From a virus (taxonomy: Duplodnaviria; Heunggongvirae; Uroviricota; Caudoviricetes), in IMG/VR virus record IMGVR_UViG_2541047955_000001, positions 1 to 42,920 of that record: DNA of 42,920 bases; one strand, given 5' to 3'. Every line of letters begins with the position of its first letter. Position 1 is the first letter of the stretch. Positions 1,369-41,470 of this stretch are shown in pieces. Position numbers and translations under genes: made by a program. The notes below the pieces were generated by a model. That model searched no databases. It saw nothing but the letters and a program-made list of their open reading frames with translations, and was not told where the DNA came from.

Positions 1369-1444
1369 GCCGATATAGCTCAGTTGGTAGAGCAGCGCAT
1401 TCGTAATGCGAAGGTCGTAGGTTCGACTCCTATTATCGGCACCA
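1369..1444 (+). tRNA. thrW: tRNA-Thr (anticodon CGU)
   Basis: 76-nt cloverleaf GCCGATATAGCTCAGTTGGTAGAGCAGCGCATTCGTAATGCG...ATCGGCACCA; anticodon loop TTCGTAA; classic P22 attB tRNA. Confidence 0.93.
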
Positions 1445-1446
1445 TT
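1399..1446. other. attL core (3' part of thrW)
   Basis: attcgtaatgcgaaggtcgtaggttcgactcctattatcggcaccatt repeated at 41423-41470. Confidence 0.85.
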
Positions 1447-1458
1447 TAAATCAATAAG

Positions 1459-2619
1459 TTACCGCACATTTAAGTAAACCACGTTCTCCTCTTGTGCCGT
1501 ATTTGTGCCATTGCGACTTATAATCGCATCGATTTTGCTCGCGTGCTCGGTGAGATGCCCGGCTGAAAGGTGAGCGTATCTTTGAACCATTTCGAGAGTT
1601 TCCCATCCCCCCATCTCTTTAAGTGCAAGAAGAGAGACTCCGGACTGAACCAGCCAGCTTGCCCAGGTGTGTCTCAGGTCATGGAATCGGAAGTTGCTAA
1701 TGCCTGCCCGCTTTAACGCTCCCTTCCATGCTTTGTTGCTATCGGTTCTCATCTTCCTTACCGCAGCTGTTTTTGTTCCGTCGCTTCGGTAGGCAGGTTT
1801 GGTGTGGACAAATACCCATCTCTTATGGAGCCCCTGCTGTTTTCTTAATATCTGGCATGCGGTTTCGTTAAGAGGAACTCCGATCGCATTGCCAGCTTTT
1901 GTTTCATCAGGGTGCATCCATGCCATTTTCTTATCCAGATCGACCTGTGACCACTCAAGGTCTGTAACGTTGGAACGGCGAAGGCCTGTCGTGATTGCAA
2001 ACATGACCACAGGGAAGAAATGAGGAGCAATTTCTGCAAACAGGCGCTTCGATTCCTCCTCTGTAAGCCATCTGATTCGTCCATTCTTAACGCGTGGTGT
2101 TGATATTTTGGGTGCCCTGTCAAGCCATCCCCATTCAACAGCCATATTGAGAATAGCACGAAGTATTGCCAGATGCCGCGTCTTCGTTCCTTTGCTTGCC
2201 AGCTTTGGTTTATACTCCGGCACTGGCTTGCCAAGCCGCAAACACCTGTCCCGGCTCATTTCCCAGTTCAGGCGATGGCGGCGGTTTTCCATCCCGTCTA
2301 CCGCCTCCATTATTTTTTCTGTTGTTATGTCAGAGAGAATGGTTTCTCTGAAGTGCAACATCCAGAACGATATAATGCTCTTGTCATCATCAATGGACTT
2401 CTTATCCGCTTTCTCACGCAGCCACCGTATGCAGGCTTCCTTGAATAGCTTTTTCGGTGATTCCCCGAGATTTTTTACTCTCCACGCTTCTGCTTTCAGA
2501 CGATCGTGAAGTTCTTGCGCTTGCCTTTTGTCCGATGTTTCAAGAGAGCGTCTAACTCTTGATCCATCTGGCGCGACGAAATCGCAGTGCCACGTGCCAC
2601 CGCGTAGTTTGATTGACAT
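1459..2619 (-). CDS. int: tyrosine integrase, P22 Int type
   Basis: 386 aa; C-terminal HDLRHTWASWLVQSGV...YAHL catalytic region; N-terminus resembles P22 Int; adjacent to tRNA 3' end. Confidence 0.95.
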   Translation of the reverse strand: MSIKLRGGTWHCDFVAPDGSRVRRSLETSDKRQAQELHDRLKAEAWRVKNLGESPKKLFKEACIRWLREKADKKSIDDDKSIISFWMLHFRETILSDITTEKIMEAVDGMENRRHRLNWEMSRDRCLRLGKPVPEYKPKLASKGTKTRHLAILRAILNMAVEWGWLDRAPKISTPRVKNGRIRWLTEEESKRLFAEIAPHFFPVVMFAITTGLRRSNVTDLEWSQVDLDKKMAWMHPDETKAGNAIGVPLNETACQILRKQQGLHKRWVFVHTKPAYRSDGTKTAAVRKMRTDSNKAWKGALKRAGISNFRFHDLRHTWASWLVQSGVSLLALKEMGGWETLEMVQRYAHLSAGHLTEHASKIDAIISRNGTNTAQEENVVYLNVR

Positions 2620-2843
2620 GCTTTAACCTCCTGCACATCAACCGCATTCACCGCGCTATTGTGTCTCACAGACTTAAGCGCCGCAATGCAGTCTGACTTG
2701 CAAATGCGATATGGGCTTTTAGGTTTATCTGGATTTATCTTTGCGGCCTGAAGTCGTCCACTTCGTATCCACTGCGTGATAGTTCCTTTGTCTACCTTCA
2801 GATACGACGCTGCCTCTTCACGAGTGAAGATTTCTTCTTCCAC
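2496..2843 (-). CDS. xis: excisionase
   Basis: 115 aa, immediately upstream of and overlapping int; HTH-like N-terminus; size matches P22 Xis. Confidence 0.7.
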   Translation of the reverse strand: MEEEIFTREEAASYLKVDKGTITQWIRSGRLQAAKINPDKPKSPYRICKSDCIAALKSVRHNSAVNAVDVQEVKACQSNYAVARGTAISSRQMDQELDALLKHRTKGKRKNFTIV

Positions 2844-10682: not shown

Positions 10683-11333
10683 TTAAGGAAGGTTTGCTAG
10701 CTTGGCATCAACGACAACGCCAATGATTTTACAGTTCCCATTGATTTCAATCATTGGGTATTGTGGATTGAGTGGTTTCAGGAATTTTCTACCGGCATCA
10801 ATAACTAACTTTTTGAATGTCGCCTCGTTTTCTCCTTCAAGTTTGGCGACTACCAGCTTTCCATTACGTGGTTCGACTTCTGGGTCGACGAGAATAATCA
10901 TCCCCTCAGGAATACTCAGTCCTGCCGGGGCAGTCATTGAATCGCCTTTAACGTCGAGCCAAAAAGAGTCTTCAGAACAATCTACCGTTGTGTCGTACCA
11001 GTTATCTATTGCACGCCTATGATATGGCTCTACAGCTTCCATCCAACATCCTGCGCTTACCCAACTAATTAGAGGATACGAACCTCTTGGATCATGCCTG
11101 CTGTGATAGGCAATGTTTGAAAGACTATCCTCTCCTTTCAACAGGTAATCAGGGGAGCACTGCAAAGCCTTGGCTAAGGCCAATAGGTTTTCGCCATTGG
11201 GCTCAGTTTCAGATCGCTCCCATTGGGAAATAGCAACATTAGACACGCCAACCATCTTGCCAAGGGCAGCCTGCCTAATCTTGAGTTCTTTTCTGCGAGC
11301 GCGAATACGCTCACCCATCAGTTGTGTATTCAT
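10683..11333 (-). CDS. c2: C2 repressor (CI analogue, LexA/S24-like C-terminus)
   Basis: 216 aa, near-identical to P22 C2 as recalled (MNTQLMGERIRARRK...IIGVVVDAKLANLP). Confidence 0.95.
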   Translation of the reverse strand: MNTQLMGERIRARRKELKIRQAALGKMVGVSNVAISQWERSETEPNGENLLALAKALQCSPDYLLKGEDSLSNIAYHSRHDPRGSYPLISWVSAGCWMEAVEPYHRRAIDNWYDTTVDCSEDSFWLDVKGDSMTAPAGLSIPEGMIILVDPEVEPRNGKLVVAKLEGENEATFKKLVIDAGRKFLKPLNPQYPMIEINGNCKIIGVVVDAKLANLP

Positions 11334-11714: not shown

Positions 11715-12011
11715 ATGGCACAAGCAAGCTACAGCAAGCCAACCCAGCGAGAAATTGATCGCGCTGAAACTGATTTACTCATCAACCTGTCAACGCTTAC
11801 CCAGCGCGGTCTGGCAAAGATGATTGGCTGTCATGAATCGAAGATAAGCAGAACGGACTGGAGATTTATTGCTTCGGTCTTGTGTGCTTTCGGAATGGCA
11901 TCAGACATCAGTCCGATTAGCAGGGCTTTTAAGTATGCGCTTGATGAAATCACAAAGAAAAAATCCCCGGCCGCCACCGAGGATTTTAAGCAAATTGATA
12001 TGCAATTCTGA
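11715..12011 (+). CDS. CII-like transcriptional activator (P22 c1 position)
   Basis: 98 aa; resembles lambda CII in HTH and C-terminus (KKKSPAATE...QIDMQF). Confidence 0.7.
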   Translation: MAQASYSKPTQREIDRAETDLLINLSTLTQRGLAKMIGCHESKISRTDWRFIASVLCAFGMASDISPISRAFKYALDEITKKKSPAATEDFKQIDMQF

Positions 12012-17344: not shown

Positions 17345-17529
17345 ACGCCACAATTCAAACGATACCAGAGCTTCTTATCCAGACACGAGGCAATCAGACC
17401 GAAGTGGCGAGGATGCTTTCCTGCGCAAGAGGAACGGTGCTCAAGTACAACCGAGACAGCAAAGGCGAACGTCACGTAATAGTTAACGGCGTCCTGATGG
17501 TCAAACAGGGCAAGAGAGGAAGACGATGA
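17341..17529 (+). CDS. ninH: NinH
   Basis: 62 aa; GNQTEVARMLSCARGTV HTH resembles lambda NinH. Confidence 0.7.
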   Translation: MNATIQTIPELLIQTRGNQTEVARMLSCARGTVLKYNRDSKGERHVIVNGVLMVKQGKRGRR

Positions 17530-18014
17530 GCATAAGAGAACTAAACCTCACCAAAGAACAGCACGAGTGGCTGAATGGCTGGCTTGAACTGTGGGGCGCA
17601 TGGGTTTATTCAGGTCGTCTGGAAAAGCGCATGAGCAGCGTAATAGCGAAGTTCATGGAGAGCGTAGAGCCGGGAAGAGTTATGACAAGGCCAATGTGTA
17701 ATGATGATGATGGAATGTTGATTTCTCAGGTCGTCGATTCCGTCATGTACATTGACAAGAAAGCCTTTGGAATCCTCCTCAGCTACTACGCTCATGGCTC
17801 TTCCAAGCACGCCATTGCATCTTACTATCATCGCGTCGCAAGACCTCGCAAGATGTTATGCCGGGGCGGCGGGCGCATTCAAAAACCATCGCTCGCAACC
17901 TGTCGACGGGAAGTTGACGAAATCCTCAATGCCTCGTTGTTTATGATTTACCCGGTTCTGGATAGTGCGTTTAAAAACCGGAAACGTGTAGAGAAAATTA
18001 AACATGTAGCATAG
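17526..18014 (+). CDS. late-gene antiterminator Q (P22 gene 23 type)
   Basis: 162 aa; last gene of the nin operon, immediately upstream of a promoter/terminator and the lysis cassette. Confidence 0.7.
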   Translation: MSIRELNLTKEQHEWLNGWLELWGAWVYSGRLEKRMSSVIAKFMESVEPGRVMTRPMCNDDDGMLISQVVDSVMYIDKKAFGILLSYYAHGSSKHAIASYYHRVARPRKMLCRGGGRIQKPSLATCRREVDEILNASLFMIYPVLDSAFKNRKRVEKIKHVA

Positions 18015-18105: not shown

Positions 18106-18180
18106 GGGTCAGTCGTATAAAGGTCATTACGGAAGGCTGTTAACCTTCTTATCGTGGTTCGAGTCCACGCTGTCCCGCCA
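18106..18180 (+). tRNA. tRNA-like, Asn (GUU) anticodon, imperfect stems
   Basis: 75 nt ending CCA; anticodon stem GAAGG/CCTTC, loop CTGTTAA; T-loop TTCGAGT; one T-T mismatch in acceptor and D stems. Confidence 0.45.
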
Positions 18181-18185
18181 AATAT

Positions 18186-18261
18186 GCTGGTTTAGCTCCA
18201 ATGGTAGAGCGGTCGCCTTGTAAGCGAATGGGTAGCGGTTCAAGTCCGTTAACCAGCACCA
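18186..18261 (+). tRNA. tRNA-Thr (UGU)
   Basis: 76 nt; 7-bp acceptor stem GCTGGTT/AACCAGC; D stem GCTC/GAGC; anticodon loop CTTGTAA; T-loop TTCAAGT; 3' CCA. Confidence 0.6.
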
Positions 18262-22486: not shown

Positions 22487-24652
22487 ATGGCCGACGAAAA
22501 CAGACTCAATTCCATTCTGTGTAAGTTTGACGCAGACTGGATGGCGAGCGATGAAGCCAGAACCGAGGCGACAAATGACCTGTATTTTAGCCGAGTGTCG
22601 CAATGGGATGACTGGCTATCAAACTACACGACTCTGCAATATCGCGGACAATTCGATGTTGTTCGCCCGGTGGTCAGGAAACTGGTCGCAGAGATGCGCC
22701 GGAACCCTATCGACGTTCTCTTCCGACCCAAAGACGGCGCTAATCCTGATGCTGCCGATGTGTTGATGGGGATGTATCGTACTGATATGCGCCATAACAC
22801 GGCAAAGATTGCCGTTAACGTTGGCGTTCGTGAGCAGATAGAGTCCGGCGTTGGTGCATGGCGTCTGGTCACGCAGTACGAAGACAACGATCCAACAAGC
22901 AACAATCAGGTAATCCGACGCCTTCCAATCCATGAAGCCTGCTCACACGTCATATGGGACGCCAATAGCAAGCAGATGGATAAGAGCGACGCTAAGCACT
23001 GCACGATGATTAACGCTTTGTCACGCAATGGCTGGAAAGAGTTCGCAGAGGATTACGGTATTGATCCGGATACCTTGCCATCTTTCCAGAATCCGAACGA
23101 TACATGGCTGTTCCCTTGGGTATCGAATGATGTCGTCTACGTCGCTGAGTATTACGAGGTCGAAGAGAAGAAAGAGAAGGTCTTCATCTACCGCGACCCG
23201 CTGACAGGTGAGCCGGTCAGCTATTACCAGCAGGATATCAAAGACGTCATCGACGACCTGGCTAATCGTGGATTCATTAAGGTAGCAGAGCGCAAGGTGA
23301 AGCGTCGGCGTGTGTATAAGTCGATCATCACCTGCACGCAGATACTGAAAGACCGCGAGAAGATAGCCGGAGAGCATATTCCAATCGTTCCAGTGTATGG
23401 CGAATGGTCATTCGCTGGTGACAAGGAGTGCTACGAAGGAGTGGTAAGGCTGACGAAAGACGGTCAGCGCCTTCGTAACATGATCATGTCATTCAACGCC
23501 GATATTGTTGCTCGTTCACCGAAGAAGAAACCGACCTTCTTCCCTGAGCAAATCGAAGGCTACGAATACATGTACGGTGGAAATGATGACTATCCGTACT
23601 ATCTGCAGAACAGGACCGATGAAAACGGTAACGACCTGCCGATTGGTCCAATCTCCTACATGGAAAACCCTGAAGTGCCGCAAGCCAACGCTTACATGCT
23701 TGAGGCTGCCACCAACGCAGTGAAAGAGGTGGCTAGTCTTGGTGTGGATGCGCAGGCGGCAAATGGTCAGGTCGCTTTCGATACCGTCAATCAACTGAAC
23801 ATGCGGGCAGACCTTGAGACATACGTGTTTCAGGATAACCTGGCTACCGCAATGCGACGTGATGGCGAGATTTATGCCTCAATGGTCAACGATATTTATG
23901 ACGTTCCTCGTCATGTAACGCTGACACTTGAAGATGGAAGCGAGAAAGACGTTCAACTCTACGCGCAAGTTGTAGATTACCAGTCCGGTAATGTGGTCAC
24001 ACTCAACGACATTCGCGGTCGCTATGAGTGCTATACAGACGTTGGGCCATCCTTCCAGAGTATGAAGGAACAGAACCGCGCAGAGATTCAGGAATTGCTC
24101 ACTAAGGTTCCGCAAGGTACTCCAGAGTTCCAGATGCTGATGCTGCAATACTTCACGCTGCTTGACGGTAAAGGCGTCGAGATGATGCGAGAGTACGCTA
24201 ACAAGCAACTGGTGATGATGGGGCTGAAGAAACCAGAAACACCTGAAGAGATGGAGATGGTACAGCAGGCACAACAACAGCCGCAGCAGCCATCAGCAGA
24301 GCAAATTCAGGCGCAGGGTATCCTTCTGCAAGGTCAGGCTGAATTGCTCAAGGCAGAGAACCAACAGGCGCAGATTCAGGTTGAAGCCGCCAAGGTTGAA
24401 GCCCAAAACCAACTCAACGCCGCGAAGATTGCAGAAATCTTTAACAATATGGACCTCGACAAGCAGGCAGAACTGCGTGAGTACCTCAAGCTCGTAGGTC
24501 AATTCCAGCAACAGCGCAGCAAAGATGCTCGTGCTAACGCTGAGCTGCTTCTTAAAGATGCAGACCAGACTCATTCACAACGCATGGATTTCGCGAATCT
24601 TATGCGTCAAGTTCAAATCCCCTCCGGCGGAGTAGCCGAGACACCTCAATAA
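22487..24652 (+). CDS. portal protein (P22 gp1 type)
   Basis: 721 aa; strong similarity to P22 portal along the whole length as recalled, including Gln-rich C-terminal barrel. Confidence 0.95.
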
Positions 24653-27200: not shown

Positions 27201-27678
27201 TTTAGTTCTTGCGGCATTACGTAAGCTCGGTGTGGCATCAAATGCCACGTTAACCGATGTCGAACCGCAGTCTATGGAAGACGGCGTCAACGACCTTGAA
27301 ATGATGATGGCTGAATGGCTTGGCGGTGATGCGTCACCTGGTATCAACGTTGGCTACATTTTCGCTGATGCAGATGTCGCTCCAGATCCTGGCGATGAAC
27401 ACGGTTTATCAAATAACGCTATCAATGCCGTCATTTTCAACCTTGCCTGCCGCATTGCTCCGGATTATGCGCTGGAAGCGTCTGCAAAACTTATAACCAC
27501 TGCCAGATACGGGAAAGAGCGACTCGTCAAACTGTCTGCAATGGACAGAGCAAAAGCCGCTAAATGTAAGTCCGGTTATCCAAACCGTATGCCTGTTGGT
27601 AGCGGTAACAAGTTGGCGAAGTGGAACGGTTGGAATTACTTCCACCGAAAGGAACCTTGCGATAACGGGAGCGAATAA
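27178..27678 (+). CDS. head-completion / tail accessory protein gp4
   Basis: 166 aa from internal ATG; [30 protein letters not shown]... matches P22 gp4 as recalled. Confidence 0.85.
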
Positions 27679-38373: not shown

Positions 38374-41088
38374 ATGTTTATTATGCCAGAACAATTATAC
38401 AACGTTGTTGTTTCACAACCAAGTCAGTTATTTACTTTAGCTCGCTCGTTTAAAGCAAATGCCAATGGCAAAATTTATATCGGTAAAATTGACACTGACC
38501 CTGTAAATCCTGAAAACCAGATTCAGGTTTATGTGGAGAACGAAGACGGTTCTCACGTTCCTGTTTCGCAACCAATAATCATTAACGCTGCCGGATATCC
38601 GGTATATAACGGACAGATTGCCAAATTCGTAACCGTGCAAGGCCATTCTATGGCTGTTTACGATGCTTATGGCACTCAGCAGTTTTATTTTCCAAATGTA
38701 TTAAAATACGATCCAGATCAGTTTGGCCCAGACTTCAAAGAGCAGTTATCTCAATCAGGAGCATACATTAATGATGATTCAAAAGGTGATGCATTAATTG
38801 GGGTAAGGCAGCCATTTACCGGGGCTGCAACTATAACTCAGCATGAAAACAATGCTCTTTTCTTAAATGTAAAACAATTTGGAGCAATTGGGGATGGGAA
38901 ATATCATCCATTATCTGAGTGGTTTTCTTCAATTTCTGAAGCAAAATCCTTATATCCTTTTGTTGACTCATTATCTCAGTCAATAGACTGGGCCGCGTGG
39001 CAAGCTGCCCTTAACACAGGAAAGGTTATTTATGGTACTGATAATGCGTATGTAATAACGGATACGTTAACACCTGTTTCTGGTGGTGGGATAATTTGTC
39101 TTGGTGTGGGCAAATGGGTCTCAGGATATACTGCAACATTTGCTCCTGATATTACCACAGGGACCACATTCCTGATGTACGGGGTAGGAAATAAAAAATA
39201 TACTGTAGATTGTGTTTCTAATATGGATGTTAGTGGTGGTGTGGTTTCTAACCCATCTTCCGAAGACCCGTATACAACAACGGCACCTGCGTCATCATAT
39301 GATTTATTGGATTTTACTAACGGTGATGCTAATGGGACTACAAGAGCCACGCTTAAACCATTCTCTGCCGCAATATTGATGCCTGAGACAGGATGTGTTC
39401 GCCTTGAGAACTTTCGTGTTGTTCCATATTTCAATGGGCTGGATGGTTATAAAGACATTGCAAATACCGGTCTTGGCGATGAGTGGGATGTAGGTATTTG
39501 GTCACGTGCGTCTTTTGGCAATGAATACCGCAATTTGCAGGTGGTTGGATACTGGCGCAAGACGGCACTTTTAAAAACGAACATTCCTGTATCTGGCACG
39601 CTGGCCGCTCAGGGCGAGGATGAAAACTATTATCACTGTAGATTCCAAGGATTCAAGGGTATTTCGATCCGCGCCCATGATGTATTCCGAATTACAGCGG
39701 TAACGTCCAGCACTATCGAAATACCATGGTCAGCAAGCCACACCTTCGAAACGTCCGGGGTTTTAAGATCTGGAGGCAGGAATTTCACTTATTCAGGATT
39801 ATCCGTATCCGGTGATAAGTTAGTATTTACTGGAGTGTCTAACGCTTCTGAGGCAACAGTAGGTTCTACTATACGGCGAAATGACATAGATAACTTTGGT
39901 ATGGCGGGAACGCAATTTTTCGATTGCTACATTACCAGCCTGTATCACCACACACATCTGCTTGCCACATCGCAATACCTGTCTCAACCATTCAGCCGAC
40001 CATCAGAGTGTATGGAGGTTTCAGGGGAACCAGTTCGCGGTGTACAGGTACATGCAGGAACCATTCAGGGATGGGATGATGTTCTTATTCATCTACATGA
40101 CTGTGGAAATATGAACTTTTACAGTACATATTTCGAAAGCCAGCAAGCATATGTAACTATAAATGGTGGTAATGCTATTGGTTATGGAGCACGTATGATA
40201 GCTTCCCGGCAATCAACAAGCTCATTACCATATGCAGCAGGGAATACTCGAGTGCTTAGAATGGTCGGGTGCTCTGAAGGCAATGGCGTTGACTGGGGTC
40301 CTGTATTTAACAACTATACAGGAGGAAGATATAATTCCGGAGACGGTGTATTTAACCCCCGCGATGCATTTATAGACCATAAATCTCTTCCTGAGCAGTC
40401 AGGAGGTGAGTCAAGACTCGTATCACAAAAAGGAAATGCCAGAGTAGTATGTGGTGTTGGTAAAACTGTACTGCTTGGACCAACGTCAGGAGATTGTAAT
40501 TTACAGAGTAATACTGGAAGTTTAAATATTAGAAGTGGGATAAGAGTAAGAATCGGTCACGCTGATGGAACAGACTGGTGGTTGGCAGATGCTAATAAAA
40601 TAGCTCCTGTTGATGATAATGTTAAAGCCATTGGACAGCCATCAAACAGATGCTCTGTTATTTATGCAGGAACCGGGTCAATCAATACATCAGATGAAAC
40701 TCTTAAAACAAGATATGATATTCTTAATGCAGAGCGTGATGCCGCTATTGAAATAAAGTCAGTCATCTATAAATTTAAATTTAATGACTCAATTAATAAC
40801 AAAGGAATTGAGTCGTCCAGGTATCATTTTGGCGTTGGCGCTCAAACCGTAGGGGATATTCTTAGAAAGCATGGTTTAAACCCTGAGCAATATGCTTTTT
40901 GGTGTTACGATGAATGGCCTGACGTATGGGATGAAGAGGTGATAACTGAAGAGAGCACAGATCCTGATACAGGTGAGAAAATTTATTCTCAATATAAAAC
41001 AGGAGATATGATTCTTGTAAAAAAAGCAGGAGGACGCTACGGAATTCGTTATGACGAATTGGCTATGTTTATATTAATGGCAATGTAG
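38374..41088 (+). CDS. tailspike: P22/Sf6-type head-binding domain, beta-helix depolymerase, C-terminal S74 chaperone domain
   Basis: 904 aa; conserved N-terminal head-binding region; FGAIGDGK beta-helix start motif; C-terminal SDETLK...[10 protein letters not shown]74 signature; true start may be ATG at 38383. Confidence 0.9.
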
Positions 41089-41106: not shown

Positions 41107-41137
41107 ATCCCGCATAAAAAATGCGGGATTGTTTTTA
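41107..41137 (+). terminator. intrinsic terminator after the tailspike
   Basis: Hairpin ATCCCGCAT-aaaaa-ATGCGGGAT followed by TGTTTTTAT. Confidence 0.6.
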
Positions 41138-41422
41138 TCTGGTGTATTTATGAATTTTAAGTAAATTTTAGTATTGATTACTGCATCGCAGTTAAAGCCT
41201 CATTACCTATGAGGTAAAACTGAGACACACAAGGCTTTGCACTGGATTGCAAGGCTTTGTGCTCTTCTATGCTGGGTGGCTACATGTTTGAAGATCGTTG
41301 TGCCGTATTTGTGACATACACATGACAACATCATGCATCAACTTTCTGTTTGTGCCATCAACTATTGCTTGGTGAATGCGGTTAATGCTTGCTAAAACAG
41401 ATAGTTATGATTGGTGCTACAG

Positions 41423-41470
41423 ATTCGTAATGCGAAGGTCGTAGGTTCGACTCCTATTATCGGCACCATT
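41423..41470. other. attR core (displaced 3' fragment of thrW)
   Basis: 48-bp exact copy of thrW 3' portion 1399-1446; no 5' tRNA half present. Confidence 0.85.

Follow-up and report, generated by a model that had tools for sequence, protein, structure and literature searches.

The window, by which we mean the whole stretch of 42,920 nucleotides that was analysed, carries near its left end an intact threonine tRNA gene, thrW, adjoined by genes for an integrase and an excisionase, and near its right end, beyond the tailspike gene (38374–41088), a second copy of the 3' part of thrW followed by host DNA. The features that define this arrangement are:

1369–1444, plus strand: thrW, an intact tRNA-Thr(CGT) gene, its 3' part inside attL (ARAGORN).
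1399–1446: the attL copy of the 48-bp core identity (exact repeat).
1459–2619, minus strand: int, a tyrosine integrase of 386 aa, SfX/HK542 type (Pfam Phage_integrase, E 9e-35).
2496–2843, minus strand: xis, a P22-type excisionase of 115 aa, overlapping int (Pfam HTH_17).
41107–41129, plus strand: a terminator-like hairpin 3' of the tailspike gene.
41423–41470: the attR copy of the 48-bp core identity, a tRNA fragment and not a gene (exact repeat).
41623–41961, plus strand: the truncated integrase of a resident thrW island, in the host flank (Pfam Arm-DNA-bind_3 only).

The two att copies are identical over 48 bp, the greatest length over which the thrW region and the right end of the window match exactly, and they form a direct repeat of the core at both ends of the prophage that is the same as the 3' part of the target gene. 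A preliminary description of this DNA had given the repeat as the 3' 48 bp of thrW; the exact 48-bp identity stands, although it is made up of the 3' 46 nt of the gene together with the 2 nt that follow it (TT). ARAGORN calls no tRNA at 41423–41470, and the published 23-bp core of the P22 attP, ATGCGAAGGTCGTAGGTTCGACT (quoted in PMC8022706), lies inside the repeat. Between the two copies are int, xis and about 40 kb of P22-like phage DNA, the remainder of the prophage being that of a mosaic P22-like podovirus. The intact thrW adjoins int as had been described, with int beginning 15 bp past the tRNA gene, and the segment that separates the tailspike terminator from attR, put earlier at about 285 bp, measures roughly 285–290 bp.

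Both genes needed for a recombination module of this kind, a full-length tyrosine recombinase and an excisionase, adjoin attL. The Phage_integrase domain of Int is complete, and the protein is 99.5% identical to the Int of the viable phages HK446/HK542 and 55% identical to that of P22, while Xis is 42% identical to P22 Xis and has the length of the annotated HK542 excisionase. We see no inactivating change in int or xis, such a change being what the preliminary description had named as telling against integration, and the lengths of both open reading frames are those annotated in HK542.

We rebuilt the empty site by joining positions 1100–1446 of the window to positions 41471–41820, giving a sequence of 697 bp. 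E. coli Nissle 1917 and ATCC 25922 are among the genomes that contain this sequence without interruption and at 100% identity, and there are 705 complete genomes that cover at least 80% of it. Because the flanks are contiguous in other genomes, the ~40 kb represent an insertion bounded exactly by the 48-bp repeats. The truncated island integrase adjoins thrW in the empty-site genomes too, and thrW therefore held an island remnant already. The exact attL/attR repeat, the contiguous empty site and the full-length Int together bear out the earlier proposal of integration into thrW, and we regard it as proven that a ~40-kb P22-like prophage is inserted in this threonine tRNA gene. The insertion would have come about by lambda-style site-specific recombination between attP and the 3' part of thrW, and would have relied on an SfX/HK542-type Int, a heterobivalent tyrosine recombinase, together with a Xis of P22 type; in the attL product (1399–1446) an intact thrW would have been rebuilt beside int, with attR formed at 41423–41470.

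The boundaries of the prophage, its target and its recombination module are already known in kind, and match phages in GenBank. Positions 1399–2900 are 98.3% identical to ECP1, mEp213 and mEp043 over all 1502 bp, 98.1–98.2% identical to HK542 and HK446, and 98.3% identical to SfX over the part that the SfX record covers; the integrase and attachment site thus belong to a module that coliphages are already known to carry. In the records of HK542 and HK446 the site is annotated 'attP; similar to thrW tRNA gene', and integration of SfX at thrW downstream of proA is documented (PMC3306764). At the other end of the prophage, the P arm is 94–95% identical to HK542-type phages from 41216 onward.

When the two arms of the reconstructed attP are compared with each other, a common 16-mer, TTGTGCCGTATTTGTG, is found at 41298 and at 1492, with a third, related copy at 41349. 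The repeats seen here, and the other elements of the two arms, are located as follows:

1449–1461, plus strand: AATCAATAAGTTA, an exact match to the IHF consensus WATCAANNNNTTR (regular-expression scan of the reconstructed attP).
1492–1511, plus strand: two adjacent candidate arm-type Int sites of the P' arm, TTGTGCCGT and TTGTGCCAT, 11 bp apart.
41228–41261: the conserved stem-loop CACAAGGCTTTGCA-CTGGAT-TGCAAGGCTTTGTG (folds, phage records, alignment).
41298–41317, plus strand: an adjacent pair of candidate arm-type sites of the P arm, TTGTGCCGT and TTGTGACAT.
41350–41358, plus strand: the third candidate arm-type site of the P arm, TTGTGCCAT.

The pattern TTGTGMCRT has six matches in the 42.9 kb, five of which are no more than 130 bp from the two cores and all on the plus strand, a count that is to be read as post hoc since the pattern was derived from the sites and then counted; the sixth match overlaps the cII start codon. 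The P' pair falls within the 3'-terminal part of int. Of eight P arms belonging to this attP type, all have the GTTGTGCCGTATTTGTGACATA pair unchanged and seven keep TTGTGCCAT at 41350, the eighth having TTGTGTCAT instead. Positions counted from the first base of the core identity can be set beside those of similar repeats in other phages:

Window, TGTG[CA]C: P arm at -124, -113 and -72; P' arm at +94 and +105.
P22, TGGGAC: P arm at -125, -114 and -60; P' arm at +94 and +105.
SfII, TG[GA]GAC: P arm at -125, -114 and -60; P' arm at +94 and +105.
HK639 (Int 57% identical), TGTGTC: P arm at -135, -124 and -68 (opposite strand); P' arm at +93 and +104.
Epsilon34, TG[GT]GAC: P arm at -62; P' arm at +93 and +104.
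Klebsiella phage 2b (Int 59% identical), TGTGTC: P' arm at +93 and +104, read from the sequence.

At four of the five positions the sites in the window are within 1 bp of the repeats in P22 and SfII, and the TGGGAC repeats of P22 are ones that we take, from the logic of the sequence, to be the P22 arm sites. At the matching P' position, HK639 and Klebsiella phage 2b, whose Int proteins are 57–59% identical, have TTGTGTCGTATTTGTGTC, and the P' pair of epsilon34 mixes both variants of the motif, ATGGGACAT and TTGTGACAT. The TTGTGMCRT repeats are therefore present on both arms and clustered at att in a conserved layout, with a motif that diverges along with Int, and we consider the five TTGTG(C/A)C(G/A)T copies to be likely arm-type sites. 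Int would then have as its accessory sites three direct repeats in the P arm at attR (41298, 41309 and 41350) and two in the P' arm at attL (1492 and 1503), and the match at 1449–1461, which separates the core from the P' arm sites, is a candidate H' IHF site. An 11-bp inverted match between 41220 and 1668 was set aside as coincidental, as the DNA at this place codes for HDLRHT, a conserved motif of Int.

The preliminary description had pointed to a different pair of repeats as possible arm-type sites, namely two direct copies of CAAGGCTTTG within the segment between the tailspike terminator and attR. Two copies are indeed present, although one base to the right of where they had been placed, at 41230–41239 and 41250–41259. 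A third copy occurs by chance on the minus strand (11163–11172), and the decamer is not over-represented when one mismatch is allowed, with seven occurrences in the window against 4.6 expected. The pair itself is not a chance occurrence, because the element of which it forms part is conserved in 174 phage records. As arm sites for the N-terminal domain of Int, the two copies would aid assembly of the attR or attP intasome, and their arrangement as direct repeats in the P arm, two helical turns (20 bp) apart and just within the HK542-type attP homology that starts at 41216, is in favour of this reading. However, a search that allowed one mismatch finds no copy in the P' arm beside attL, and the left copy is variable, being CAAATCTTTG or CAAAGCTTTG in phages with 99%-identical Int, and CAAGG-, CAAAT- or CAAAG-CTTTG in the eight P arms of this attP type, only two of which have the exact direct repeat. 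The pair also falls outside the span of the five sites that fit the P22 layout; moreover the element crosses integrase families, being common to lambda, phi80, P22, epsilon34 and Stx phages, which have other integrases, and in lambda it is outside every annotated Int footprint. The proposal that these are arm-type sites does not survive these observations, and we give it hardly any credence. As judged from the sequence, the two CAAGGCTTTG copies pair with each other to form a conserved stem-loop, and are not sites for integrase.

The decamers make up the arms of this stem-loop. CAAGGCTTTG is nearly its own reverse complement, and direct copies placed 20 bp apart therefore also form an inverted repeat. 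Folded as the plus strand, the element has a perfect 14-bp stem that includes two G-U pairs, and on this strand a terminator scan makes a call at the stem-loop, with 14 pairs and the tail CTCTTCTATG. Folded in the sense of int, the stem has two A-C mismatches, and there is a U4 run 8 nt away with no immediate U run; the same scan calls no minus-strand terminator at the stem-loop. The 174 matching phage records are those found with 62 bp around the stem-loop, and they include lambda and its relatives, phi80, HK106, Stx phages and Sf101, and also P22-like phages, SfII/SfV and epsilon34, among which integrases and att sites differ. A comparison with Rfam at the stem-loop in the window, lambda/DN1, P22 and HK542 gives nothing with E up to 1.

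A scan of viral contigs with GGNTTGCAAGGCTTT returned mostly chance matches, and 34 distinct sequences passed a stem-pairing filter, a few of these being from reference loci and not from viral contigs. Most of the stem-loop loci scanned are prophage ends without an adjacent int, at which typing of the integrase is impossible; sorted by their int-proximal flank, the 34 variants fall into about six groups, and on the distal flank most of them have a conserved tail, GAGACAAAAnTGAGACACA. When 29 distinct variants are aligned, pairing in the proposed register holds for 87.9% of cells, as against at most 59% in slid registers, although the alignment is biased in that one arm was fixed by the search pattern. 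Two stem pairs in this alignment show double changes from CG to UA, and the observed covariation score of 0.153, against a shuffled mean of 0.134, provides modest support for the stem.

The element has been annotated in several phage records, as a minus-strand rho-independent terminator in SfII, as a terminator in phage L and as a 'possible rho-independent terminator for transcription from int' in epsilon34. These phages differ from the present one in having the element inside the P arm, and in having either another att specificity (argU, epsilon34) or a P22-type Int.

The comparison with lambda is informative about where the element stands relative to a known terminator. Positions 41226–41294 of the window match lambda 27473–27536 at 81%, and the lambda counterpart of the stem-loop is at about 27475–27509, with all four of the regions annotated as Int-binding to its right. 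When lambda 27449–27629 is folded in the sense of int, a separate and stronger hairpin is seen at about 27536–27585, ACAGAGC-AUUAGCGCAAGG...CUUGCGCUAAU-UUUUUGU, with an 18-bp extended stem and a U6 run, and this hairpin ends 276 nt past int. The lambda terminator tI lies 277 nt beyond int, and the hairpin at about 27536–27585 is thus presumably tI/sib. In lambda the counterpart of the conserved element is another hairpin, which lies about 27 nt past the U6-tailed one, and to our knowledge no function has been assigned to it. We therefore rejected the idea that the stem-loop is a homologue of lambda sib, as it aligns to 27475–27509 and not to the U6-tailed hairpin at 27536–27585.

In the reconstructed attP the stem-loop lies about 220–255 nt past the int stop and, in the sense of int, it is the sole stable hairpin between this stop and the tailspike terminator. 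In the circular phage it has the leftward int transcript on one side and, on the other, the rightward late operon, in which the tailspike gene comes last, and integration carries it to the end of the prophage opposite int. Because it is the only stable hairpin and lies between convergent transcription units, our best guess is that the stem-loop acts as a terminator or as a hairpin that forms 3' ends, possibly in both directions. We put this function forward tentatively, as having not quite an even chance of being correct.

The same location could suit a retroregulator of the sib type, in which RNase III would cut RNA reading through from the early-left promoter and destabilise the int mRNA, and integration, by splitting the stem-loop from int, would leave the prophage able to make Int on induction. 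As with lambda sib (PMC2951348, PMC5300877), the stem-loop follows int on the far side of attP and is moved away on integration, and both its being the sole stable int-sense hairpin before the tailspike terminator and the internal mismatches of the int-sense stem fit such a role. Nevertheless an interrupted stem of 14 bp would make a short substrate for RNase III, and the element is not homologous to the terminator hairpin that lambda itself has in this place, and we think retroregulation unlikely. A further alternative is that the element works not as RNA but as a site for a protein of the recombination complex, such as a P22-type Xis, IHF or Fis. In P22, SfII and epsilon34 the element is found between the distal arm pair and the third arm site, where the Xis and Fis sites of lambda occupy the equivalent place, and the decamers are direct repeats like lambda X1 and X2. 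For P22-type attP, with the stem-loop between arm sites, a role inside the recombination complex is possible. In the present phage, however, the element is outside the arm sites, at -195 to -162, and in lambda, which has an unrelated Xis, it is far outside attP; it does not match the IHF consensus, and its left decamer varies among phages with ~98% identical int-xis DNA. We consider a protein site of this kind improbable here.

The sequence can also be read as TTGC-N6-TTGC-N6-TTGT (41237–41260, plus strand), which would be a binding site for CII driving a CII-dependent promoter, and the authors of the epsilon34 genome annotated two putative CII-binding sites in the element (PMC2629481). The other matches to TTGCN6TTGC, on the minus strand, are at places where such sites might be looked for, one being at the start of the cII gene (pRE-like) and the other antisense in a candidate Q gene (paQ-like). 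Yet the three matches in the window are not above the chance expectation of 4.0, and the TTGCA/TGCAA palindrome will of itself produce phased repeats of this kind. The element is not followed by a conserved -10, because the flank differs between attP classes, and a rightward promoter at this point would read antisense into int. With a count at chance level and no conserved -10 we rejected the CII box as the main reading, and regard it as highly improbable.

Taken as a whole, the account that we favour, built on the observed insertion, repeats, homologies, motif positions and folds, is that of a prophage in thrW with arm sites of the TTGTGMCRT type and with a stem-loop that is a candidate terminator and not a pair of Int sites, and we hold this account to be probable. 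Its significance is mostly limited to correct annotation, the boundaries, target and module being textbook. The CAAGGCTTTG pair is best annotated as a conserved stem-loop, and footprinting or attP minimisation is more fittingly aimed at the TTGTGCC repeats of the two arms than at this pair. The recurrence of the stem-loop across integrase families, including its position beside lambda tI, is a small loose end in lambdoid phage biology. It is conceivable, although we are doubtful of it, that the stem-loop and the GAGACAAAAnTGAGACACA tail constitute a cassette at the outer edge of attP that is shared by about six att classes of lambdoid phages, lambda among them, either as a common regulatory element or as a breakpoint for module exchange. 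If this is so, the cassette might insulate int from late or conversion genes, for example as a bidirectional terminator or processing site, or it might alternatively mark the point at which int-att modules are swapped between phages.

The module described here has the same thrW target and gene order as SfX, HK542, HK446, HK75, mEp213, mEp043, mEpX2 and ECP1, although it is carried by a P22-like podovirus with a tailspike, whereas the module of the HK542 group is carried by HK97-/lambda-like siphoviruses, and the DNA to the left of 41216 is unrelated to HK542-type phages. It resembles P22 in its tRNA target and core, in having xis overlap int, in the IHF-like site beside the core and in the layout of five repeats (-125, -114, about -60 to -72, +94 and +105), but the repeat motif is TTGTGCC here and TGGGACA in P22, and the stem-loop, which in P22 lies between the distal pair and the third site, is here outside all of the arm sites. 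As in lambda, the P' sites fall in the last codons of int. Notwithstanding a sequence that is not homologous to lambda tI/sib, the stem-loop resembles it in being located downstream of int across attP and in being detached from int in the prophage.

The conserved stem-loop of the P arm, with its 14-bp stem, contains three phased TTGC/TTGT repeats (TTGC-N6-TTGC-N6-TTGT; 41237-41260, + strand), which match the CII-box consensus at the level of sequence. Elsewhere in the window TTGCN6TTGC is matched only twice, both times on the minus strand or antisense, at the following positions:

11724-11737, minus strand, where the cII gene begins, a pRE-like position
17838-17851, antisense within the candidate Q gene, a paQ-like position

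The same scan of the window found no TTGCN6TTGC box upstream of int. The candidate gene for the antiterminator Q lies at 17526-18014, and shortly downstream of it, at 18106-18261, the prophage has two tRNA genes, one for Asn (GTT) and one for Thr (TGT). In the tailspike (38374-41088), the N-terminal head-binding domain is of the P22 type and the C-terminal chaperone domain (Peptidase_S74) is of the endosialidase type.

Immediately to the left of the stem-loop lies CTGAGACACA (41220-41229), which is part of a conserved tail, GAGACAAAAnTGAGACACA, that accompanies the stem-loop in most phages in our alignment of stem-loop variants. In P22, TGGGACAAAAATGGGACATA stands at the equivalent positions (617-640 of L005), which are also those of the two distal putative arm sites. 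The tail could be left over from arm sites of the P22 type, or the descent could have run the other way.

On the core side of the stem-loop, the third candidate arm-type site is surrounded by a tandem 20-bp unit that starts with CATCAAC (41336-41375; copies 70% identical), and the ATCAA core present in each copy resembles half an IHF site. As the eight related P arms of the same attP type hardly differ anywhere between about -100 and the core, we regard this whole stretch as a candidate location of Xis or IHF sites. Beyond attR, the resident thrW island has an integrase gene (41623-41961) that is cut after its arm-binding domain, leaving 112 aa, and is directly followed by very AT-rich DNA (41962-42400), an arrangement that is the same in genomes without the prophage.

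In the phage DN1 record (MF374379.1), a 162-nt 'antisense RNA' is listed on the + strand at 22494-22655 with reference to the BL21(DE3) annotation; its end lies about 25 nt past the lambda copy of the stem-loop, and no Rfam family matches it. In a three-way alignment, the interval that separates the conserved stem-loop from the first arm site is about 27 bases longer in lambda than in the attP type of the window (lambda record L001, ~27536-27585, compared with window 41262-41300). These extra bases supply one arm of the U6-tailed terminator hairpin of lambda, and the other arm, CTTGCGCTAAT, aligns with GTTGTGCCGTA, the first candidate arm-type site of the window.
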